DNA of 11,270 nt, taken from contig WAKA01000172.1 of assembly GCA_015523565.1 (NCBI GenBank), positions 1 through 11,270 on the forward strand. The letters run 5' to 3'. This DNA comes from Candidatus Heimdallarchaeota archaeon. GTDB taxonomy: Archaea; Asgardarchaeota; Heimdallarchaeia; Heimdallarchaeales; Kariarchaeaceae. Below the pieces are notes generated by a model. The model worked only from the letters and a program-made list of their open reading frames with translations, did not search any database and was not told the origin of the DNA. A program made the position numbers and the translations under genes. Of this stretch, positions 7 to 11,270 are shown in pieces (the first letter of the stretch is position 1; each line of letters starts with the position of its first letter).

Positions 7-2790
7 ATGCGAATTGGAAAGTTTGAGAATTTTTTTATGGTCAGAACAGTTTACAAAAAAACTACAAGCCAATCTGCCACTATCATAATTGTAGGAATGA
101 TTTTTCTTATTATCACACCATATGTTGTAACTATACAATTTGAAAATGAGAAAATGAGGGAAAACTTGCAAGCAAATCCCCTTTATATCGCAACAAGTGC
201 ATACAATCAAACATTTGGAGCAAATGATTCTCAAATCATATCTGAATTTTCATCAGTCACGAAAATTTTTGAAAAATACGGGCAAAACACAATTGAGGAA
301 AAAATGATGTTCTTTTCAAACCATGCCTTACAGTTTAATGACCTAAACCAATCTTACATGATAATTCTCACACCAAAACTACACGTCTCATCAAACAAAA
401 TCCCGGGATTTTATTCAAATGCATATGAAGAAAAAGTATTAATTGAAAAGATACAAACAAAATTCAACACGTCAATACCATTTGATTTGCAACCATTGGA
501 TTCAAGTAGCCAAAAGTCTATCGAGAATGTAGGACATTGGTTCTATAAGGGAGACAATATCATTGGCAATCTCACGGGAAATTTTGTTAAAGCAAGGGAA
601 AAACCAAGAATGGAAAGGTCAGTCATTTCGTACAAATTTGTGGTTTTGCCTTGGGAACTAATTGATACTATAGAAAAATTCCCAAAAATATCAAATTCAA
701 CATTTTTCATGTTTCAAGCTCATCTTTCAGATCAATTTCTTGGTCGGACATTAGATGAAACAATTAAAGAGGTGGATGGGATTGTAAAACAAATAAAAAG
801 GGATTTTACGTTGTTTAAAACCAATAGCCAGTCTGATTGGAGTTACATTGCATTCCCCCTGCAATATTCCCTTTATACCCTCAAGAAAGCAAACACAATA
901 ACTTCTGCATTTAATGCATATATAAAATTTATTTCAATGTTGATTTTGCTTTACATAGTGACATTTTTGTATTTCACTAGAGAAATATCCGCATTCAACA
1001 AAGCCGTGGGAAAAGTTCATTTAAGAGGGATGTCATCTAGAAAGATAAGAACATGGGGGTTTCTTTCATTTGCCATTAGAGTTTTCAAGACGATGTTACT
1101 TTTTGCAGGGGGTCTTGTTTTCATGTATTTCGGATATCATCTTAAGATCAGGTTTTTTCCTTATTTTTCATTGACTTCACTTAAAAATGTCATAGGAGAA
1201 ATAATGGTTTTTTATATTTCGATATTGATTTTATGGGAAATAGCATCAGGCATTCAAAAATCGAGGTTCTCTAGACATTCCAAAAGAAAAAAGAAGAGGA
1301 AAAATCAAAAAAAGGATTCTTTCTTTGAAAAGGTACTCTTGAAATGGAAATGGAATAATTTCCTTTTGATTACAGCAGTGATTGTCATTTTACTGCCCAT
1401 ATTGATTGTTGCATTTCCAGTTCAAAAATTGGAAGGTAGTACGTTGTTAATTTTGATCGGGAGTTTGATTCCATTAGGATATGTTGGAATATTACAAAGG
1501 TCAGAAAAACTGACATTGAGATATATAAGACCCTATCAAAGCATTCGTCAGAAATTACAAAAAAAGAAGTTTATGAGACAATTGAAAATACACCTTGTTA
1601 TCATACTGACCATCATTATGTTAGCGCAGCCCACACCCTCTTACGATTTTGACAAAAGAAAGCTAATGCCTGGGGATGTTATTTTCTCACAGATTAGCGT
1701 AGACGTAGAGGGAGAAAAGGGATATTTCAATTATTCAGAGATAATGGCATTACAGAGAAACACCAAAGTCAAGACAATCCTCCCTATCATGTATATCAAA
1801 AGTGCAGTTGAAACAGTTAAAAATCCCTTTGCAAGTGAGATTGTGCCTACATTTGTCATAGATTTCAAAATATTCAGGGAATTAAGTTCGTCATTTAACT
1901 GGAGGTCATATCAACCGTTCCAAATCGAGGAAATATGGAGGAAAAGTGAAAATACAACAAATGGAGTCATAGTCACGGGTTCTTTTGCAAGCCAATATGG
2001 TATCGCATTGGGTGATGTCATAAATTTGGATACGTTATTTTCAATACGTCTTAAACCCCTGCTTCAACAAAAATTTTCAGTAAAAGTCATTGGAATTGTA
2101 TCAGAAATTAAACTTGCAGGATACAACATCTATACGTCATCCCAGATTTATTTTCCATATGCTTTATTTCAGGAAAAATTGCCATACGGGCAAAACATGA
2201 CAAATGGTTTTGCATTAAAATTCACAGATGGTATTGATAATGCAGAAAAAGCAGCCAGTGTAATCAAGGAGCTTGAAAATCAGATTGCAGAATCATTTGA
2301 ATTTGACAAAGCATCATTGTTTACAACTGCCTCATTTGATCCGAAGAGAACAATCGAGATTGAAAACAAATGGGGATTTTCATCAAATGAGTTAATCTAT
2401 ATGACATCGGTTGTAAGATTGAATAATTTTTTCAATCACCTGATACTATTTGGAATTGTCCTGCCCACCATTTTTGTTTCGGAAACGGATATTAACAGAA
2501 TAACATTGCAACTATTGAATTTACGTGGTTTAAAGAAAAAAGAGTTCATCGATAAGTACATCAAAACTACACGAACGTGGATAATAATGTCAGGGATTGG
2601 ACTGCTTTTCCTTTATGCGGCAATCAGAACAATGATGCTAATCAAGGAATATACATTCCTGCCACCATATCCATGGCTTTTTGAATTGAATTTATTAAAA
2701 AGTGCAGGGTGGATAGGTATATTTTTAGGAGTTTCCATTCTGGGTTTCCAAAGAAAAGTCAAATCATTTGGATGTGAAGAAAATGAGTAA
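7..2790 (+). CDS. FtsX/MacB-like ABC transporter permease (two-module membrane protein with two large extracytoplasmic domains)
   Basis: 927-aa ORF with the pattern TM, large soluble domain, TM bundle occurring twice. It has two FtsX-like cytoplasmic motifs (HLRGMS, NLRGLK) and overlaps the downstream LolD-type ATPase. The start could be the ATG at 37. Confidence 0.75.
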   Translation: MRIGKFENFFMVRTVYKKTTSQSATIIIVGMIFLIITPYVVTIQFENEKMRENLQANPLYIATSAYNQTFGANDSQIISEFSSVTKIFEKYGQNTIEEKMMFFSNHALQFNDLNQSYMIILTPKLHVSSNKIPGFYSNAYEEKVLIEKIQTKFNTSIPFDLQPLDSSSQKSIENVGHWFYKGDNIIGNLTGNFVKAREKPRMERSVISYKFVVLPWELIDTIEKFPKISNSTFFMFQAHLSDQFLGRTLDETIKEVDGIVKQIKRDFTLFKTNSQSDWSYIAFPLQYSLYTLKKANTITSAFNAYIKFISMLILLYIVTFLYFTREISAFNKAVGKVHLRGMSSRKIRTWGFLSFAIRVFKTMLLFAGGLVFMYFGYHLKIRFFPYFSLTSLKNVIGEIMVFYISILILWEIASGIQKSRFSRHSKRKKKRKNQKKDSFFEKVLLKWKWNNFLLITAVIVILLPILIVAFPVQKLEGSTLLILIGSLIPLGYVGILQRSEKLTLRYIRPYQSIRQKLQKKKFMRQLKIHLVIILTIIMLAQPTPSYDFDKRKLMPGDVIFSQISVDVEGEKGYFNYSEIMALQRNTKVKTILPIMYIKSAVETVKNPFASEIVPTFVIDFKIFRELSSSFNWRSYQPFQIEEIWRKSENTTNGVIVTGSFASQYGIALGDVINLDTLFSIRLKPLLQQKFSVKVIGIVSEIKLAGYNIYTSSQIYFPYALFQEKLPYGQNMTNGFALKFTDGIDNAEKAASVIKELENQIAESFEFDKASLFTTASFDPKRTIEIENKWGFSSNELIYMTSVVRLNNFFNHLILFGIVLPTIFVSETDINRITLQLLNLRGLKKKEFIDKYIKTTRTWIIMSGIGLLFLYAAIRTMMLIKEYTFLPPYPWLFELNLLKSAGWIGIFLGVSILGFQRKVKSFGCEENE

Positions 2791-3466
2791 AGGTTATATC
2801 AAGCTAGAAAAAGTGTATAAAGTGTTTGGCGGAAGAACAGATTCTGTTGCACTTTCAGACGTGTCCCTATCAATCGGGAAAGGAGAATTCGTCCTCTTGA
2901 CAGGACCAAACGGCAGCGGGAAGTCAACCCTCTTGAAATTGATTCTTGCAGAACATGTGCCGACAAGCGGCAGGGTCATTGTTGACAAAAAAATTGTCCA
3001 TGAAATGTCTGAACAAGAACTTTCAGAATATCGAATAAGGAAGGTCGGAATGATATTCCAAGATTTCGGACTGATTGATTTCATGACGGTCAGGCAAAAT
3101 CTGGAGATCCCGATGATCATAGCGAATACACCTAAGGAGGAAAGGCAACAGAAAGTTGAAGAAGTGGCTGAACGGCTGTCCATAACACATTTGCTGGATT
3201 CAAAAGTCTCCACACTCAGCGGAGGGGAAAAGCAACGGACATCAATTGGAACAGGGATAATCAATGACCCAGAAATCATCTTGGCAGATGAACCCACAGC
3301 GAACATTGACAGAGATGGAAGGAATGAAATATCCGAATTTTTCAAGGAGATGAAGGAAAGGGGGAAAACCATCCTTTTGGTGACACATGAAACAAACCTG
3401 TTCGATAAGTACGACAGATTCTTGAAGTTTGACAAGGGTTATCTCATCGATGAAAATGGTGGTTGA
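2783..3466 (+). CDS. ABC transporter ATP-binding protein, LolD/MacB/FtsE (MJ0796-like) family
   Basis: Walker A GPNGSGKST, Q-loop IFQDF, signature LSGGEKQR, Walker B IILADEPTANID, H-loop LVTH. The ATG at 2783 overlaps the upstream stop (ATGAGTAA) and is preferred over the TTG at 2768. Confidence 0.95.
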   Translation: MSKGYIKLEKVYKVFGGRTDSVALSDVSLSIGKGEFVLLTGPNGSGKSTLLKLILAEHVPTSGRVIVDKKIVHEMSEQELSEYRIRKVGMIFQDFGLIDFMTVRQNLEIPMIIANTPKEERQQKVEEVAERLSITHLLDSKVSTLSGGEKQRTSIGTGIINDPEIILADEPTANIDRDGRNEISEFFKEMKERGKTILLVTHETNLFDKYDRFLKFDKGYLIDENGG

Positions 3467-5714
3467 ATTGAAAAGAAACAGCCTGATTTTCCGTTCTGTC
3501 TTGACCAGCCAAATACGCAGGATTGCAAATCTGGGATTGTTATTCATTGCAATGTATCTGCTTCTTTTTGTTTTGATGGAGGGATATGTAGCTGAACGAA
3601 ACAGGCAATTCTACGAGAAGTTGGACGATACGCCACAGGTAATATTTGTCGGATCAACACAATATAGCACCGCATTGATGGATAAATTGGACAGCCTTCA
3701 AAATTCAGTTGGAAATATTGTATTGATTGCATTTTCCCTTAGAGTGCAAGGAGGAGCAATTTTATATTTACCACATCTTTCAAACCCTGCTGTCTCAAAA
3801 TGGTTTTTAGAAGGGAAGGGCACCTCACTTTTTGAGTGGACAGGAATTCCGACAAGAATAATTGATATCAAACCAATTAAAGACATGCCAAAAAATACAC
3901 AGAAGATAAAACCCAGCCTATCAATTTCAATGAAGTTTTCTAAGCAGGATTTGGATCAAAGCATGTTCAGCATCTCAAAAAATATACAGGGCAAAATCAA
4001 GTTGGTTGAAAGATTTCTGACTTCAAATAACATAAAGTATTGGGAAAAAAACCAAATCAAAGAAATGGAACAAGAATTCATGCCTCAAGAAATATACTTG
4101 AAAGAAATGATATTGGCAACCATAGCATTGTTCTTTCCAATCATCATATCTGTAATTTCCGTACAACTGAAAGAATTAAAGAAAAAAGTAGATCAAACCA
4201 TCGATGGACTTGCAAAACGAGGATTTCAGAAAAGTGGAATTACAGGGATTATGACATTGTATACAATAATATTCATGCTTATCATGACAACCATCCCTGC
4301 TGCATTGTTTTATTTTTATCATAGGAAAAGTCCACTTAGTCTCGAAGTGGAAATGCTACATTTTGCACTTGTCTCCATTCCAGTTGTGTTTCATTACTTC
4401 AATGAATCAGTTGCCCCATACCTGAAATATACAAAAAAATATGTTGTACTTTTTGTTTATTCAGCACTGCTTTTGACGATGTTCATGGAGATAGTTTTCT
4501 TGGGCTATCCGAAATATTCAACAATATTGATAATGCTATGCACATACCTACTACTTATAACAGTTCTGGACAGAATACTGTTCAAGCTGTCCATTAAAAT
4601 CATCAATAGCATTTCAAAGCCAAGTCATTTTTCATTCGTTTTTTCAACAATGACCATTGAGGCACTAAAGGCAAAAAAACTGAAAAACCATGTCCGAACT
4701 TTTTGGGCAAGCCTTTTGTTGGTTATGATAATTGCCCCATTGTTGATTGCCCCCTCATTCAAGTTTGATGGCAGTTGGGGGTCACTTACCTATCAGGTGT
4801 ATGGAACATACGATATGTTTGATGAATGGAAATCAAAGACAGAATTGGATCAGCAAGAAATCAGTGCATTAGGGATTGTGGACTTCAACATTGCAATAGA
4901 ACAAACAGCATTCGAAATGGGGATTTTCTTAAACCCAGAAAAAATAACACCAGGTTACAGGAATATCAAGGATAACAATGGACAAATCATTTCAATCGCC
5001 GCCAGCAAACGGTTCCTGTCTAAAACAGGATTGCTTGTTGGGGATGTGATCAAAATCAAGCTGGCAGACCAGACAATGGCTATTGAAATCAGCAAGACCT
5101 TTGATTTCATTTACCCCTTCTCTTTTGGGGAATTGCATCTTATAGACGTCTATACAACAGTATCAGAGTTGGAAAATGCCAAATTTCAAACAGGACAGTT
5201 GCCCTTGACATACATCGGATTCGCGAAAAGACCAAGCAACAAGGCAACAATCGAAAGAAACTTGTTTGAAACATTTGGGAACTATAAGGAGGTCAGTTTC
5301 CAGACAACAAAAAATACAAGCCCAATCTCATTTATTGCCGCATTCAAGAATGTTGATACAATAACATCAGTAATCATGTTCATTTTTGGGATAATCCTAG
5401 TTTCTATTTGGACAAGGATTTGGGAGAGCATTGAAAAAGAACAAAAATTCATTAGGTTAAGAGGGCAAAAATTATCAAGAAAGTTATTTGTAATGCCATA
5501 TTTTGCATTTTCACTAGGCTCAGTTATCGTAGCAAACATATTCCTCTTCTTTTTCATTGGAACGACCTCAACAAAAGATCAGATACGTTATATCTTTATG
5601 GTACCTCTTTCGTTTGCAACATGGTTTTTAAAATACAATATATTTATTTTGGGACTTTTTGTATCAGCATGGTTCCCAATTGCCTTGAAAACAGGAAACA
5701 CATATGTTTCTTGA
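3450..5714 (+). CDS. second FtsX/MacB-like ABC transporter permease
   Basis: About 755 aa with the same duplicated TM/extracytoplasmic layout. Motifs are LAKRGFQK and IRLRGQK, plus GLLVGDVIKI in the soluble domain (compare GIALGDVINL in permease 1). The start is the ATG at 3450 or 3456, overlapping the ATPase 3' end. Confidence 0.72.
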   Translation: MKMVVELKRNSLIFRSVLTSQIRRIANLGLLFIAMYLLLFVLMEGYVAERNRQFYEKLDDTPQVIFVGSTQYSTALMDKLDSLQNSVGNIVLIAFSLRVQGGAILYLPHLSNPAVSKWFLEGKGTSLFEWTGIPTRIIDIKPIKDMPKNTQKIKPSLSISMKFSKQDLDQSMFSISKNIQGKIKLVERFLTSNNIKYWEKNQIKEMEQEFMPQEIYLKEMILATIALFFPIIISVISVQLKELKKKVDQTIDGLAKRGFQKSGITGIMTLYTIIFMLIMTTIPAALFYFYHRKSPLSLEVEMLHFALVSIPVVFHYFNESVAPYLKYTKKYVVLFVYSALLLTMFMEIVFLGYPKYSTILIMLCTYLLLITVLDRILFKLSIKIINSISKPSHFSFVFSTMTIEALKAKKLKNHVRTFWASLLLVMIIAPLLIAPSFKFDGSWGSLTYQVYGTYDMFDEWKSKTELDQQEISALGIVDFNIAIEQTAFEMGIFLNPEKITPGYRNIKDNNGQIISIAASKRFLSKTGLLVGDVIKIKLADQTMAIEISKTFDFIYPFSFGELHLIDVYTTVSELENAKFQTGQLPLTYIGFAKRPSNKATIERNLFETFGNYKEVSFQTTKNTSPISFIAAFKNVDTITSVIMFIFGIILVSIWTRIWESIEKEQKFIRLRGQKLSRKLFVMPYFAFSLGSVIVANIFLFFFIGTTSTKDQIRYIFMVPLSFATWFLKYNIFILGLFVSAWFPIALKTGNTYVS

Positions 5715-5899: not shown

Positions 5900-6625
5900 G
5901 TGCTGAAAGGACTATATTTCGTAAGTGAATCCGGCAATCTCATCTCCTATGTCCTTTTGGATGAAAACGTCCCAACCGAGGAACACCTATTTTCCGCCTT
6001 TGTCACAGCTCTTGAAGGTTTTTCAAAAGAAACGCTGGGTTCACATTTCAAAGGCATGCGGTTTGAAAGGGAGAAAATAATCGTCCACTTCAATCGCGTC
6101 TATACAATAGGGATATTCACTGATGATGAATTGGACTCTGCTGCAAACAGAGTTCTTGCTCTTGCAAACGAACACTTCATTGAAATGTTTGGGAATGAAA
6201 TTGACAGCCATCATTTCATTGATGCATCACCACATATCATGCCAATTCTCGAAAAATCATCAACTGTCAAGGTATCGCCACGCAGAATTGGGCTATTTGT
6301 AGGATTAATGACCATCGCATGTCTTGTGATCCTCATGTTCCCCAAGCTCTTCCAATCTGAGGGGATACTTCTGGTATTGTTCCTATTATTGGGATTAGCG
6401 GGAGGATTCATGATTCCCCAAAGGTGGTGGGCCACCCTGCTCGCGTCAATTTTGGTTAACCCCCCAGCATTCCTACTGATCTACAATGGGTTTACATTCT
6501 TTTATGCCGATTATTTTGCTGTGTATTTCATTTTCATATTCGTCATGGTTTCCTTTATTTTGGATCGCAAAAAAATCAGCAAAACTCCAGTACCACACAT
6601 TCCATTCATTTCAAATATTTTTTAA
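5900..6625 (+). CDS. longin-like N-terminal domain fused to about 4 TM helices
   Basis: The N-terminal pattern GLYFVSESGNLI...LFSAFVTALEGFSKETLG..FKGMRF...IIVH..VYTIGIF followed by a helix resembles Asgard longin/roadblock-like domains (beta-beta-alpha-beta-beta-beta-alpha). The C-terminal ~110 aa contain four hydrophobic segments. Confidence 0.6.
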   Translation: MLKGLYFVSESGNLISYVLLDENVPTEEHLFSAFVTALEGFSKETLGSHFKGMRFEREKIIVHFNRVYTIGIFTDDELDSAANRVLALANEHFIEMFGNEIDSHHFIDASPHIMPILEKSSTVKVSPRRIGLFVGLMTIACLVILMFPKLFQSEGILLVLFLLLGLAGGFMIPQRWWATLLASILVNPPAFLLIYNGFTFFYADYFAVYFIFIFVMVSFILDRKKISKTPVPHIPFISNIF

Positions 6626-6684
6626 CCCATTTTACATTTGCAAAGACATACCAAACAAAAATCCCTCAAACTTGAAAGGAGGGG

Positions 6685-6727
6685 GTTACAAGAGTTTATA
6701 TTATTTACTGCATAATCTAGTGTAGGA
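6685..6727 (+). promoter_or_regulatory. promoter region copy 1 (purine-rich BRE-like ACAAGAG plus TATA TTTATATT at 6695-6702)
   Basis: 43 nt identical to 7506-7548, with the TATA-like box about 30 nt upstream of the ATG. Confidence 0.6.
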
Positions 6728-7345
6728 ATGAGTGTTACTCAAAGGGTCTCCCAACTTGAAAGCATAATGGCCCAACTTGCCTATGCCCAAATGAAAACTG
6801 AAATGGTCGTCCAGAACCTTGCAAACGAAATGAAAGAGTTCAAGGACGAGATGAAGGATTTCAAGAACAGTGTGAATGAATTCAATAGCAACATGAACAA
6901 AAAATGGGGCGAGCTCGCCAACAGAATGGGAACCATTGTTGCAGACCTGATCTATCCCAACCTTCCCCACCTGCTCCAAAAGACGTTTTCCTTGGAAGAG
7001 CCTCGGAATGTGGCAACGAACATCAAGAGGAAACTGAAGGAGAAAAACCTCCAAGGAGAGGTGGATATGATTGTTGAATTTGAGCAGATGGTGTTCATCA
7101 ACGAAACAAAATCTAGTCTCAATGCAGAATATATCGATAAGTTCAGATGGTTCATGGACGAAAAGTTTCACCTATTGTTCCCAGAATTCAACAACAAGAA
7201 GGTCGTCCCTGTCATGTCTTCATTGAATATTGACGAGAAACTCATCCCAAAGCTGACAGAATACAAAATCTTTGCTGTGCATGTGTTCGGGGACATCCTC
7301 ACCATCAAGAATTTGGATGAGGTCAGAGGAGAATACGGATTATAG
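6728..7345 (+). CDS. coiled-coil heptad repeat plus PD-(D/E)XK nuclease-like protein (DUF3782/DUF1626-like), paralog 1
   Basis: EMKEFKD/EMKDFKN heptads, then MNKKWGELANRMGTIV, then GEVD...FINETK (D...ExK motif). Confidence 0.7.
   Translation: MSVTQRVSQLESIMAQLAYAQMKTEMVVQNLANEMKEFKDEMKDFKNSVNEFNSNMNKKWGELANRMGTIVADLIYPNLPHLLQKTFSLEEPRNVATNIKRKLKEKNLQGEVDMIVEFEQMVFINETKSSLNAEYIDKFRWFMDEKFHLLFPEFNNKKVVPVMSSLNIDEKLIPKLTEYKIFAVHVFGDILTIKNLDEVRGEYGL
6827..6889 (+). repeat. three degenerate 21-nt heptad-coding units (two in paralog 2, 7648-7689)
   Basis: gaaatgaaagagttcaaggac / gagatgaaggatttcaagaac / agtgtgaatgaattcaatagc. Confidence 0.85.
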
Positions 7346-7505
7346 TTTATTTCAGCTAAAAAAAAGTTTGATCAACCACAAGAATATGCATGATCATAAT
7401 GTGAAGTAACCCTAGGATTGAAACCAGCCTCAGCAATACCAACCACCAATGAAAATATGAAAAAAATTTCTTAACTTTTTATAAATTAAATCTTGAAAAG
7501 AAGCT

Positions 7506-7548
7506 GTTACAAGAGTTTATATTATTTACTGCATAATCTAGTGTAGGA
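7506..7548 (+). promoter_or_regulatory. promoter region copy 2 (TATA at 7516-7523)
   Basis: Identical to 6685-6727. Confidence 0.6.
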
Positions 7549-8145
7549 ATGAGTGTTACTCAAAGGGTCTCCCAACTTGAAAGCATAATGGCCCAACTTG
7601 CCTATGCTCAAATGAAAACTGAAATGGTCGTCCAGAACCTTGCAAACGAAATGAAAGAGTTCAAGGACGAGATGAAGGATTTCAATAACAACATGAACAA
7701 AAAATGGGGCGAGCTCGCCAACAGAATGGGAACCATTGTTGCAGACCTGATCTATCCAAACCTTCCCCTCCTGCTCCAAAAGACCTTCCAGTTGGGAGAG
7801 CCGTTGAATGTGGCAAGAAATGTAAAAAGAAAGCTGAAGGAGAGGAATCTTCAAGGAGAGGTGGATATGATTGTCGAATTTGAGGAGTTGGTATTTATAA
7901 ATGAAACAAAATCAACCCTCAATATGGAACACATCATCAGATTCAGACAATTTATGGATGAAAGATTCCCCCTGTTATTCCCAGAATTCAACCACAAGAA
8001 GGTAATCCTAGTTATGTCATCATTGGATATTGACGAGAAACTCATCCCAACCCTGACTGAAAACAAGATTTTTGCGATCCACATCTTCGGCGACATCCTC
8101 ACCATCAAAAATTTGGATGAGGTAAGGGATGAGTACGGACTATAG
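7549..8145 (+). CDS. coiled-coil heptad repeat plus PD-(D/E)XK nuclease-like protein, paralog 2
   Basis: Same motifs as paralog 1, one heptad shorter, intact ORF. Confidence 0.7.
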   Translation: MSVTQRVSQLESIMAQLAYAQMKTEMVVQNLANEMKEFKDEMKDFNNNMNKKWGELANRMGTIVADLIYPNLPLLLQKTFQLGEPLNVARNVKRKLKERNLQGEVDMIVEFEELVFINETKSTLNMEHIIRFRQFMDERFPLLFPEFNHKKVILVMSSLDIDEKLIPTLTENKIFAIHIFGDILTIKNLDEVRDEYGL

Positions 8146-8462
8146 CTTTTGTAACAGTGAAATACATATTATGAACAACTTTCATTGATTGAGCAAAAGT
8201 ACTTCAGTTAAATGCATATTAGGTCATCCCCAATATAAATATCCAAGCGGAAAACAAGTTTCATACATTTCGTTTCCGAATAAACCATCCGAGAAATTAG
8301 ACGAATACGATTGACAAAAAATGAATAACTAAAGAGGACACCACTTCATTACCTTTCAAAGAGACCCTCTCGAAAAAATTGAGGAAAACCAAATATTGAA
8401 TCCTTTTAATAAAAATAATTGAGAAAAAACTGTGTGAAAGAATAAAACCATGGCGAGAAAAT

Positions 8463-8509: not shown

Positions 8510-11230
8510 TTAATACTGAACCAAACCGTAACCGCTGTACGCTGTCCAAGCCGAGGTGCCGAACTGATACGCCATGCTGTGAAGCAAGCCACGAATAGTG
8601 GCGTCACCCATGTCATAGAACCCACCAACAGGAAGGTGACCATATTCGGCAATCAACAATGCAACAACACCACTGACATGGGGTGTCGCCATCGAGGTGC
8701 CAGCCCACATGGCATAGCTGCCATTCAAGAAGGTGGATACAATGAATTCACCAGGAGCAACCAGCTCAAGGTATGGGGCTGTATTTGAGAATGTGCTCAC
8801 ACGATCATACATATCGGTTGAACCCACTGCAATCACCTCTGAATAGGCAGCTGGCCATGTGTCTCCTTCAAGGGTGGTTATGTCGCCGTCTCCTCCGTTG
8901 CCTGCCGCTGCGACAAGAACTACGCCATTATCATAGGCAAACTTGATCGCATCATACACGTACGACGGAGGTAACTCTCCTTGCGAGTCAAAGGACATTG
9001 AAATGACATCCGCATCGTCTTTGGTGCCCAAAATCCCATCAGGACCATATACCGCAGCGTAAATACCATCAGCAAACCATTGGTACTCGCCAACCATGTC
9101 CCGACCTGCCAAAACCTTGATGCCATAGATTTCAGCACCTGAGGCAACACCTGCAACGCCAAAACCATTGTAGGATGCTGCAATTGTGCCTGCAACATGA
9201 GTGCCATGACCTGTCTCATCTTTGACACCTGTACCCGTGGCATCATAAACCCATGTTACTTTGCCAGCAAGATCGGGGTGTGATGGATCGATTCCGGTAT
9301 CCAAGACTGCTATTTGGACACCTTCCCCGCCGACTTCATAGTCTCTTACAACTCTGTCGACACCCCATGGAATCTCTCCATCACGAACACCCAAGTTGAT
9401 GTGCGAAAGGATGAAATCACGTACTTCAGTCTCACTCCATTTGTTCTTCACTTTTCGAATGTCGTGCTTTACTTCCTTGAAATCATGTTTGAATTCTCTC
9501 AGACCATCCAGGAAAGCACGGACATTTGACAACTCCTCACGAATAGCTGATTTGTCATCTGAATTCTTCAACTCATGCCTCAAGTACTTGCGGTATGCCT
9601 TTGCCCCTGATTTGATGTCTTTCAGCATTAATTTGAACAAATGATAAAGGTCTTTCAGACCATGGCGTACCTCTTTTGCTGAAAAATCATCACCAGTGGA
9701 CCAGAACGGTGTGCTCCAGAAAGCAGTGCTCCAAAATGCGGTGCTCCAGAACGGGGTACTCCAGAAAGCAGTGCTCCAAAATGCGGTGCTCCAGAACGGG
9801 GTACTCCAGAAAGGCGTGCTCCAGAATGGGGTACTCCAGAACGGTGTGCTCCAGAAAGGCGTACTCCAGAACGGTGTGCTCCAGAAAGGTGTACTCCAAA
9901 AGGCAGTACTCCAGAAAATCGTGCTCCAAAATGCGGTACTCCAGAAGGGAGATGCCTTTGTCAATGTACTCCAAAAGGCTGAGCTTTCCATTGCAGTACT
10001 CCAGAACGGGGTACTCCAGAACGGCGTGCTCCAGAATGGTGTGCTCCAAAACGGCGTGCTCCAGAACGGGGTACTCCAAAAGGCAGTACTCCAAAAGGCA
10101 GTGCTCCAAAAGACGGTACTCCAGAATGCAGTGCTCCAAAATGCACTATCAGTTAATGCAGTTGACCAATATGCACTGTTTTGGTTTATTGTTGACCAAA
10201 ATATGTCTGGATTGAAATTAGTGCTCCAAAAGGCTGTGCTCCAAAAAGCAGTGCTCCAGAAAATTGTGCTCCAGAAGGCAGTACTCCAGAAGACAGTGCT
10301 CCAGAATGGTTGTCCAGTCAAGTCTGTACTCCAGAAAGGAGATCCTTCAAAAATAGTGCTCCAAAAGGGTGCACCAACAACATCGGTACTCCAAAAAGCT
10401 GTACTCCAAAAGGCAGTACTCCAAAAGATTGTACTCCAGAATGGGGTACTCCAGAATGGGGTACTCCAGAAGGCATCATTGTTGATAAGAGTACTCCAAA
10501 ACGCTTGAGCATCAATCCCATTTGTGCTCCAGAATGCAGTGCTCCAAAAGGGAGTGCTCCAAAAAGCATCATTTTGTAAGAGAGTACTCCAAAATGCTTG
10601 GGCACTGAAAGTTGACCAAAATGCGGCATCCTGCATCAATGTTGACCAAAATGCTTGAGCATTGAAACCAGTGCTCCAAAAAGCGGTGCTCCAAAAGATT
10701 GTACTCCAAAAGGCTTGAGCATTAAGATCTGTTGACCAAAATGCTTGGGCATCCATTTGGGTAGACCAAAAGGCCTGAGCATCAAATTGAGTGGACCAGA
10801 AAACAGTGGACCAATATGCCGTTGACCAAAACGGCGTGGCCCAAAAGGGGTCAGACTGAGTCAATGTTGACCAGAAGGCACTACCCTCATTTGAAGTTGA
10901 CCAAAAGTATGTTGACCAAAATGGATCAGCCTGCAGGGTTGACCAGAAATATGTCGCCCAAAATGGATCAGACTGAAGAGACGTTGACCAAAAAGCGTCA
11001 GACGTCATATCAGTCGACCAAAATAGGCTACCTCTAGTCAAGGTAGACCAAAAGGCCGATGCGCCCACATCAGTCGACCAAAATAATGAGTCCTGTACTG
11101 GTGTTGCCCAAAAGGGTTGGGATTGAAATGCAGTTGCCTTGAATCCTCCATTTTGAGCGTCAGTCAAAGGGAAGGCTCCCAAGACAAGTATTAGAGTTAT
11201 CAGAAGAGTGAAGGTTTTGTCACGTTGCAA
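8510..11230 (-). CDS. secreted S8A subtilisin-family serine protease with N-terminal xFWST repeat domain
   Basis: Catalytic D644 (VLDTG), H675 (HGTHVAG), S846 (GTSMATPHV) and oxyanion N778 (AAAGN). EIPWGVDRV marks the mature-domain start. The GPDG insertion and LPVGGFYD..TIRGLLH recall Tk-subtilisin/aerolysin-type archaeal subtilases. It has a Sec signal peptide and a TTG start. Confidence 0.95.
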   Translation of the reverse strand: MQRDKTFTLLITLILVLGAFPLTDAQNGGFKATAFQSQPFWATPVQDSLFWSTDVGASAFWSTLTRGSLFWSTDMTSDAFWSTSLQSDPFWATYFWSTLQADPFWSTYFWSTSNEGSAFWSTLTQSDPFWATPFWSTAYWSTVFWSTQFDAQAFWSTQMDAQAFWSTDLNAQAFWSTIFWSTAFWSTGFNAQAFWSTLMQDAAFWSTFSAQAFWSTLLQNDAFWSTPFWSTAFWSTNGIDAQAFWSTLINNDAFWSTPFWSTPFWSTIFWSTAFWSTAFWSTDVVGAPFWSTIFEGSPFWSTDLTGQPFWSTVFWSTAFWSTIFWSTAFWSTAFWSTNFNPDIFWSTINQNSAYWSTALTDSAFWSTAFWSTVFWSTAFWSTAFWSTPFWSTPFWSTPFWSTPFWSTPFWSTAMESSAFWSTLTKASPFWSTAFWSTIFWSTAFWSTPFWSTPFWSTPFWSTPFWSTPFWSTPFWSTPFWSTAFWSTAFWSTPFWSTAFWSTAFWSTPFWSTGDDFSAKEVRHGLKDLYHLFKLMLKDIKSGAKAYRKYLRHELKNSDDKSAIREELSNVRAFLDGLREFKHDFKEVKHDIRKVKNKWSETEVRDFILSHINLGVRDGEIPWGVDRVVRDYEVGGEGVQIAVLDTGIDPSHPDLAGKVTWVYDATGTGVKDETGHGTHVAGTIAASYNGFGVAGVASGAEIYGIKVLAGRDMVGEYQWFADGIYAAVYGPDGILGTKDDADVISMSFDSQGELPPSYVYDAIKFAYDNGVVLVAAAGNGGDGDITTLEGDTWPAAYSEVIAVGSTDMYDRVSTFSNTAPYLELVAPGEFIVSTFLNGSYAMWAGTSMATPHVSGVVALLIAEYGHLPVGGFYDMGDATIRGLLHSMAYQFGTSAWTAYSGYGLVQY
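9695..11116 (-). repeat. coding tandem repeat: 70 x 15-nt units encoding x-[FY]-W-[SA]-T with 25 unique spacers
   Basis: Residues 39-512 contain 65 FWST, 3 FWAT and 2 YWST. Spacers are 22 of 5 aa, 2 of 4 aa and 1 of 6 aa. Confidence 0.98.
11156..11230 (-). other. Sec signal peptide
   Basis: MQRDK n-region, TFTLLITLILVLGAF hydrophobic core, and a likely cleavage site at TDA|Q. Confidence 0.75.
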
Positions 11231-11234
11231 TGAT

Positions 11235-11241
11235 TCACCTC
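11235..11241 (-). promoter_or_regulatory. Shine-Dalgarno site GAGGTGA
   Basis: Lies 4 nt upstream of the TTG start. A TTATAATA TATA-like box lies at 11253-11260. Confidence 0.6.
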
Positions 11242-11270
11242 AGCATAGCTGTTATTATAATATTTGAAAT

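Follow-up and report, generated by a model that had tools for sequence, protein, structure and literature searches.

A propeptide-free subtilase of a Heimdallarchaeia archaeon with an N-terminal array of 70 aromatic pentapeptides: a possible self-processing precursor of peptide signals

What is served by 70 nearly identical aromatic pentapeptides placed between the signal peptide and the catalytic domain of a secreted protease? This question is raised by a 906-residue open reading frame with a TTG start on the minus strand of an 11,270-nt contig (C172; 'the window' denotes this whole stretch of DNA) from the 3.57-Mb genome of a hydrothermal-vent archaeon of the Heimdallarchaeia (Kariarchaeaceae), which is listed in the same genus as G003, one of the genomes compared below. 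The first-pass annotation, made from the letters alone, had described a signal peptide, 70 x-[FY]-W-[SA]-T units within 474 residues, a helical segment and an intact S8 (subtilisin-family) domain lacking a C-terminal anchor, and had called the whole a candidate undescribed system. On recount all of its figures were exact (x = A32, P26, I5, V3, L2 and Y2; W and T each in 70/70; FWST 65, FWAT 3 and YWST 2). AlphaFold2 (AF2) modelled the helical segment as a hairpin, and residues 620-905 matched PF00082 with an E value of 1e-52, with catalytic D644, H675, N778 and S846 all present. The description as a candidate undescribed system also holds, because the array is real, under selection, conserved in relatives and without a match to any described family.

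The annotation had itself named misassembly as grounds for discarding the array. Shuffling of the array at fixed composition (2000 trials) gave a mean of 0.5 motifs and a maximum of 3, against the 70 observed, and all other frames of the genome contain at most two. At the DNA level 57/70 units differ, serine codons come from the TCN as well as the AGY block, and exact repeats reach 55 nt at most. In addition, one unitig of vent run X1, which may be the source sample of the genome, covers positions 9784-11270 with zero differences at a depth of 31 (29-36 in the flanks), and the 55-nt repeat is found there at double depth, as expected for two copies. We therefore rejected a misassembly or microsatellite artefact on the strength of the unit diversity, the mixed serine codons and the flank-like depth of the unitig. 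A second sample of the same study agrees with the array sequence wherever it covers it. In pairwise comparisons between units (F, W and T columns), the synonymous difference pS was 0.92 and the non-synonymous difference pN 0.007. These data show that the array is under strong purifying selection. Variants of the array, either other alleles or relatives, are encoded by loose ends in X1, and at window positions 9891-10070 a contig of run X2 jumps back by 180 nt, which may reflect an in-frame duplication of 60 array residues in a strain.

Arrays of this kind were found in 15 array-protease genes (G000, which is this genome, G002, G003, G004, G006, G008, G014, G018, G069, G070, P0006, P0007, P0023, P0038 and L238), in three of which (G069, G070 and L238) the contig stops within the array and the S8 part is presumed. 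The annotation had considered that homologues might not retain the array; these relatives keep it. Each gene has its own unit (A/PFWST, PYWST, PYWSV, PFYST in G004, SYFMQ, PFYSF, A/PFWSM, PYWSF or LFFNS), and positions 3-5 are mostly 93-100% fixed inside one gene and different from gene to gene. The earlier emphasis on tryptophan proved too narrow, as homologues carry Y or F at that position (PFYSF, PFYST, SYFMQ and LFFNS). Of 392 units, 352 (90%) begin with P, A or S; F/Y at position 2 was part of the search pattern for these units. This combination of invariance within a gene and switching between genes is, by analogy, the pattern of ligand-receptor pherotypes. All homologues have an N-terminus equivalent to the present signal peptide, and the charged linker behind the array, of variable length, is confined to array-bearing members.

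The array family is easily missed: automatic gene prediction frequently shortens its members or picks the antisense frame instead (P0038), and assemblies break within arrays. A metagenome scan gave no true homologue, and a degenerate DNA pattern scan of genome contigs, which is no census, gave among the matches listed mostly off-frame 15-bp repeats and two actinobacterial C-terminal tails. Two further matches to the array profile (G133 and G135) were rejected, as they have no in-frame signal peptide or S8 domain and look like antisense readings of K/E-rich repeats. A literature search, of incomplete coverage, for an N-terminal array joined to an S8 domain found nothing. Another fusion of a pentad array with a peptidase is encoded at L162:2439-11666 (P0008), where a 3075-residue protein combines very many IPLGS pentads with a C25 peptidase-like region and PKD domains.

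The closest PDB entry to the S8 domain is Tk-subtilisin (E 3e-58). With Tk-subtilisin and pernisine the domain shares the catalytic triad and, in a shortened form, the acidic GPDG loop that resembles the Ca2+ loop of Tk-subtilisin; it differs from them in the absence of I9, the added array and linker, and an Asp at the Gly127 position. The annotation had placed the array at the site of the I9 inhibitor propeptide usual in subtilisins. No Pfam match to I9 was obtained in the 906-residue protein, and the enzymes of an array-less sister clade have only ~30 residues after the signal peptide, so that by length I9 is likewise absent there. In a quick tree search, judged by approximate likelihood-ratio (SH-aLRT) support only, the ten labelled array-bearing domains formed one group (SH-aLRT 99), sister to the array-less enzymes (97). 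As this sister clade is also without I9, the array does not replace the propeptide; judged from these sequences, it is an insertion into a propeptide-free S8 lineage. Such an insertion is plausible, since Tk-subtilisin and pernisine fold without their propeptide upon Ca2+ binding (PMC10580911). The residue equivalent to subtilisin Gly127 is D, S or E in 9/13 array-clade enzymes and Gly in 22/22 sister-clade enzymes. Substitution at this position affects subtilisin specificity. The replacement suggests a specialised protease in the array clade. Ser125-Leu126-Gly127 is the conserved substrate-binding centre of subtilisin (PMC9312984). A member of the sister clade, with signal peptide, ~30 residues and no I9, is also encoded in this genome (G000:C222:26775-27560; L033), and the clade extends to 12 genomes of another Asgard family.

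A family of ~730-residue tetratricopeptide repeat (TPR) proteins recurs in the neighbourhoods of array genes. In the G018 protein TPR_8 scores above cut-off and TPR_12 has an E value of 6e-7. The proteins of this family have neither signal peptide nor membrane segment (no segment exceeds a hydrophobicity of 1.6), are cytoplasmic, and have conserved asparagines (N241, N282 and N312). Their C-terminal domain we call longin-like only tentatively, because its longin/roadblock matches are weak (Intu_longin_1, E 0.009; Robl_LC7, E 0.13) and it has no PDB match. The two genes are neighbours at eight loci, in four arrangements and three families: the TPR gene lies directly downstream of the array gene in G004 and one gene away in G003, directly upstream in G014, G018 and L238, divergent in G069 and G070, and at 5 kb on the opposite strand in P0006. 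Among 400 Asgard genomes the TPR family was present in 12 and true arrays, by profile search, in 10, all within those 12. Both genes are absent from G016 (87% complete), whose congeners G014 and G018 have both, and from two complete genomes of family f2; G001 (89% complete) and G007 (80% complete) have the TPR gene and no array was found in them. When four TPR homologues were looked up by the TPR protein alone, one had an adjacent array gene (L238), one had an array elsewhere in its assembly and two had none nearby. The present genome has a single TPR gene, outside the window (G000:C180:25620-27824), whose locus is shared with G001 and G002. Several TPR paralogues, with one array gene found per genome, occur in G069 (C246, C717, C439, C680 and C689) and G070 (C18 and C522), like orphan Rap receptors. 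An operon of ubiquitin genes (JAB, E2, E1 and ubiquitin; L158:14850-18031) lies ~5 kb downstream of the P0006 array gene.

We favour, at somewhat short of an even chance, the view that the gene encodes a self-processing, multicopy precursor of peptide signals that are read by the TPR protein, a system like Phr/Rap but not a member of the RRNPPA family. Phr/Rap-type signalling has three ingredients (PMC11343458, PMC3601965), namely Sec-exported pentapeptides specific to a lineage, a subtilase and a cytoplasmic TPR protein encoded by a linked gene, and it is these, together with six oligopeptide-binding proteins in this genome, that favour a signal precursor. After export the S8 domain would fold with Ca2+ and without a propeptide, as Tk-subtilisin can, and would cut its own array, perhaps folded as a solenoid until then, after each F/Y, with Pro/Ala/Ser at P2 and Phe/Tyr at P1 as in the substrate pattern suc-AAPF. 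Up to 70 pentapeptides could be released in this way. Cutting after F/Y would yield mainly WSTPF (17) and WSTAF (16) from this protein. Having accumulated, the peptides would return to the cytoplasm through an oligopeptide ATP-binding cassette (ABC) importer and be bound there by the TPR protein; the C-terminal domain of the latter may relay the signal to a protein target.

RRNPPA pheromones are 5-10 residues long and derive from secreted propeptides, possibly duplicated 1-4 times, which are cleaved by extracellular proteases and re-imported by Opp (PMC11343458); a reference given in PMC3601965 attributes production of one such peptide, CSF, to subtilisin, Epr and Vpr. With the RRNPPA systems (Phr/Rap, PapR/PlcR, NprX/NprR and AimP/AimR) the present pair would share a Sec-exported precursor of five-residue units, maturation by a subtilisin-family enzyme, a linked cytoplasmic TPR gene and lineage-specific peptides, as predicted here from sequence. 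It differs in scale, RRNPPA precursors having 50-120 residues with 1-4 copies whereas the array region has 150-480 residues and 20-70 copies, with the protease in cis. RRNPPA propeptide genes are small and lie beside the receptor gene; here the gene encodes 600-930 residues including the fused protease, and is adjacent to the TPR gene at the eight loci but not in this genome. The receptors differ too: those of RRNPPA have an N-terminal helix-turn-helix or helix bundle and C-terminal TPRs, whereas here the order is reversed, with N-terminal and central TPRs followed by the longin-like domain.

The annotation had also considered a self-processing precursor, by analogy with the cyanobactin proteases PatA/PatG. 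The precursor itself gains from the linked TPR gene, the gene-specific pentapeptides and the AAPF-like register; the analogy has to be given up, and Phr/Rap is the right one, because modifying enzymes and flanking recognition motifs are both missing and the cyanobactin model TIGR03895, which has a cut-off of 421 bits, scores 41. Cyanobactin precursor or heterocyclase genes were seen at none of the loci examined. Repeated cores within one precursor, and processing by subtilases, are familiar from yeast alpha-factor with Kex2, BURP-fused lyciumin precursors and cyanobactin PatE with PatA/PatG, and in lyciumin precursors an enzyme is fused after the repeats. To our knowledge, none of the alpha-factor, lyciumin or PatE precursors has an S8 protease fused to the array. 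Unlike these multicore precursors, the array has no dibasic or other recognition motifs between its units.

Several observations weigh against the signal precursor. Its cleavage register after F/Y is inferred, and the pocket residues of the S8 domain do not track the unit cleanly across genes. The TPR protein showed no significant similarity to Rap, Rgg or NprR: a profile search of the PDB gave no match to these or to PlcR, PrgX or AimR, and the domain Rgg_C reached an E value of 0.24 only. A cytoplasmic TPR protein suits a chaperone role equally well. Co-occurrence of array and TPR genes is inflated by kinship, as the three families may go back to a single origin, and its Fisher value is given no weight for that reason; the joint absence from G016 and from the two f2 genomes says more. 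The two genes are not adjacent in this genome, G002, G008 or the P0007 assembly, and near the TPR homologues P0159 and P0160 there is no array gene. Nor is an importer gene linked to the array gene. Across arrays, 105/123 spaced intervals are multiples of five, and a precursor needs no strict 5/10-residue register; nor does it need the conserved, W-less lead-in. Finally, three full arrays (L001, L002 and L170) are of near-equal length (474, 473 and ~477 residues) despite different units, the others having 155-293.

Strict register, lead-in motif (near-identical in G069 and P0007) and the three arrays of 473-477 residues are better explained by a serious rival, which we consider less likely than the signal precursor, namely that the array is a curli-like beta-solenoid of 20-residue coils forming an extracellular amyloid-type fibre or rod. 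The S8 domain would then trim the helical cap to trigger assembly, or be displayed on the fibre, and the TPR protein would be a cytoplasmic chaperone keeping the array soluble until export. In the present array 66/69 intervals are multiples of five and, of its 22 five-residue spacers, none are alike. Among 85 unique five-residue spacers, 87% carry a hydrophobic residue at position 2, which is in register with F/Y, against 6-41% at the other positions; under the signal-precursor reading this residue could also serve as P1. With an in-register alignment of 28 rows, AF2 returned an all-beta solenoid of 20-residue period with a predicted local distance difference (pLDDT) score of 77.5 and a predicted template-modelling (TM) score of 0.70; this model superposes on CsgA of Escherichia coli (Z 12.3, root-mean-square deviation 2.6 over 95 residues) and of Pontibacter (Z 7.5, 1.9 over 99), and on a curlin cluster of the Atlas with a TM score of 0.77. 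The 5/10-residue register and the CsgA-like model thus strengthen the scaffold that the annotation had proposed, as does, if real, the in-register duplication in the X2 contig.

However, when repeats are near-perfect, AF2 predicts unrealistic solenoids with high confidence (PMC11795689). Its four remaining models here had pLDDT scores of 50-64, and a run on the single array sequence gave low-confidence helices. Four arrays have ~20% proline, one at every fifth residue as in the pure PFWST and PYWSV arrays, which is awkward for a parallel beta-solenoid. Structural repeats usually drift, whereas here Ser and Thr are fixed per gene yet swapped between genes. Foldseek of the model against the PDB found nothing at E 0.001, and the curlin repeat PF07012 gave no match at E 0.1. 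The protein is secreted, as CsgA is, but unlike CsgA it has no curlin signature, five-residue aromatic units that often contain Pro and a fused protease, and no curli secretion or nucleator (csg) genes were seen nearby. With pentapeptide-repeat proteins (the Rfr fold and the luminal domain of SV2) the array shares a five-residue period with a hydrophobic in-register position. A marginal match to Pfam LD_SV2, a pentapeptide beta-helix, speaks for the solenoid (30.9 bits, cut-off 29), although no individual stretch passes by itself; unlike these proteins the array has two adjacent aromatics and Pro, and the model does not superpose on SV2 (TM 0.15-0.17). There was no PF00805-type match in the Pfam scan, and a feature search of the ESM Atlas gave no usable match for the array and weak hexapeptide-repeat leads for a bacterial tail. 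The signal-precursor and fibre readings are not exclusive, as a solenoid could be the storage form of the peptides.

Less probable again, and in our judgement distinctly so, is that array and linker form a sacrificial pro-region, in which dozens of preferred sites act as a competitive inhibitor or timer delaying a nutritional protease until it is outside the cell, the fragments having no signalling role. The array does occupy the propeptide position, its units resemble ideal subtilisin sites, and Tk-like subtilases use their propeptides mainly as inhibitors (PMC10580911). But the sister clade is secreted with only ~30 residues at that position, and a pro-region would not explain why W, S and T are invariant (pN 0.007), why units are specific to lineages or why there is a link to the TPR protein. 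A multivalent aromatic domain tethering the protease to minerals, polymers or the cell envelope, also proposed by the annotation, is very improbable, nothing pointing to it specifically: 147/474 array residues are aromatic, a solenoid could present them as ladders and there is no other anchor, but no similarity to any binding domain was found in Pfam or the PDB, F/Y sites lying open on such a domain would be cleaved if its fold were not tight, and neither the cytoplasmic TPR partner nor the switching of units is explained.

Bacterial AprX-like S8 enzymes resemble the array proteins in having C-terminal tails of Trp pentads with 5/10-residue aromatic repeats and, in P0002-P0004, the same WST core. 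These tailed enzymes (IVWST) belong to a clade distant from the array S8 domains, and their partner is a membrane or cyclic di-GMP sensor and not a TPR protein; at L161, for example, the gene that immediately follows an S8 gene with an IVWST tail is of the HD/GAF/GGDEF type. The genes downstream at the two actinobacterial loci with C-terminal tails gave no assignment.

We know of no genetically encoded pair of peptide pheromone and receptor in Asgard archaea, and a literature search for one found none. It is possible, though we would not call it probable, that Heimdallarchaeia have peptide-based cell-cell signalling independent of the bacterial systems, in which a secreted polyprotein matures itself into pentapeptides, dozens per molecule and specific to the lineage, and a cytoplasmic TPR-longin protein reads them. 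A signal precursor would provide a defined ligand (WSTPF/WSTAF), a candidate receptor and a test of specificity across lineages, all accessible in vitro without culturing. As Heimdallarchaeia are close relatives of the ancestor of eukaryotes, it would also bear on protease-matured peptide signals in the archaeal ancestors of eukaryotes. If the scaffold were correct, the two genes would encode a functional amyloid of a new kind, fused to a protease and served by its own chaperone. Under either reading the two-gene module is undescribed and probably works in the manner of a known signalling or amyloid system, and it parallels the unexplained protease-plus-sensor cassettes of bacteria.

Table 1. 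Features of the array-protease gene, in window coordinates
Feature	Position	Strand	Basis or content
Whole gene	8510..11230	(-)	signal peptide, aromatic pentapeptide array, helical linker, S8 peptidase; no C-terminal anchor
Shine-Dalgarno-like GAGGTGA, 4 nt 5' of the TTG start	11235..11241	(-)	sequence
Putative Sec-type signal peptide, residues 1-25	11156..11230	(-)	hydrophobic core, hydropathy peak 1.98
Two W-less lead-in pentads, GFKAT and AFQSQ, in register with the array	11117..11146	(-)	sequence
Array of 70 x-[FY]-W-[SA]-T units, residues 39-512 (474 residues)	9695..11116	(-)	unit count
Charged helical linker, residues 513-617	9380..9694	(-)	AF2 helical hairpin, pLDDT 73-89
Tk-subtilisin-like S8 domain	8510..9379	(-)	D644, H675, N778, S846; Pfam and PDB matches
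Asp748, at the position of substrate-binding Gly127 of subtilisin (S-F-D for S-L-G)	8987..8989	(-)	alignment to Tk-subtilisin

Elsewhere in the window, positions 7-5714 hold an ABC ATPase gene flanked by genes for two large membrane proteins (927 and 761 residues, without Pfam match), which resembles an exporter of the FtsX/MacB type. We rejected these neighbours as a conserved partner of the array gene: that of G003 also has FtsX and ATPase genes upstream, but between G000 and G003 the similarity is limited to the ATPases. Positions 5900-6625 encode a 241-residue protein in which a weakly roadblock/longin-like N-terminal domain (MAPKK1_Int, E 0.04) is fused to membrane helices. Positions 6667-7347 and 7487-8148 form a tandem duplication (85% DNA identity over 687 nt), whose products of 205 and 198 residues are 83% identical and have an N-terminal coiled coil and a possible PD-(D/E)xK-like region. 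They match no Pfam family above cut-off, and two further, more distant copies are found on contigs C193 and C159.

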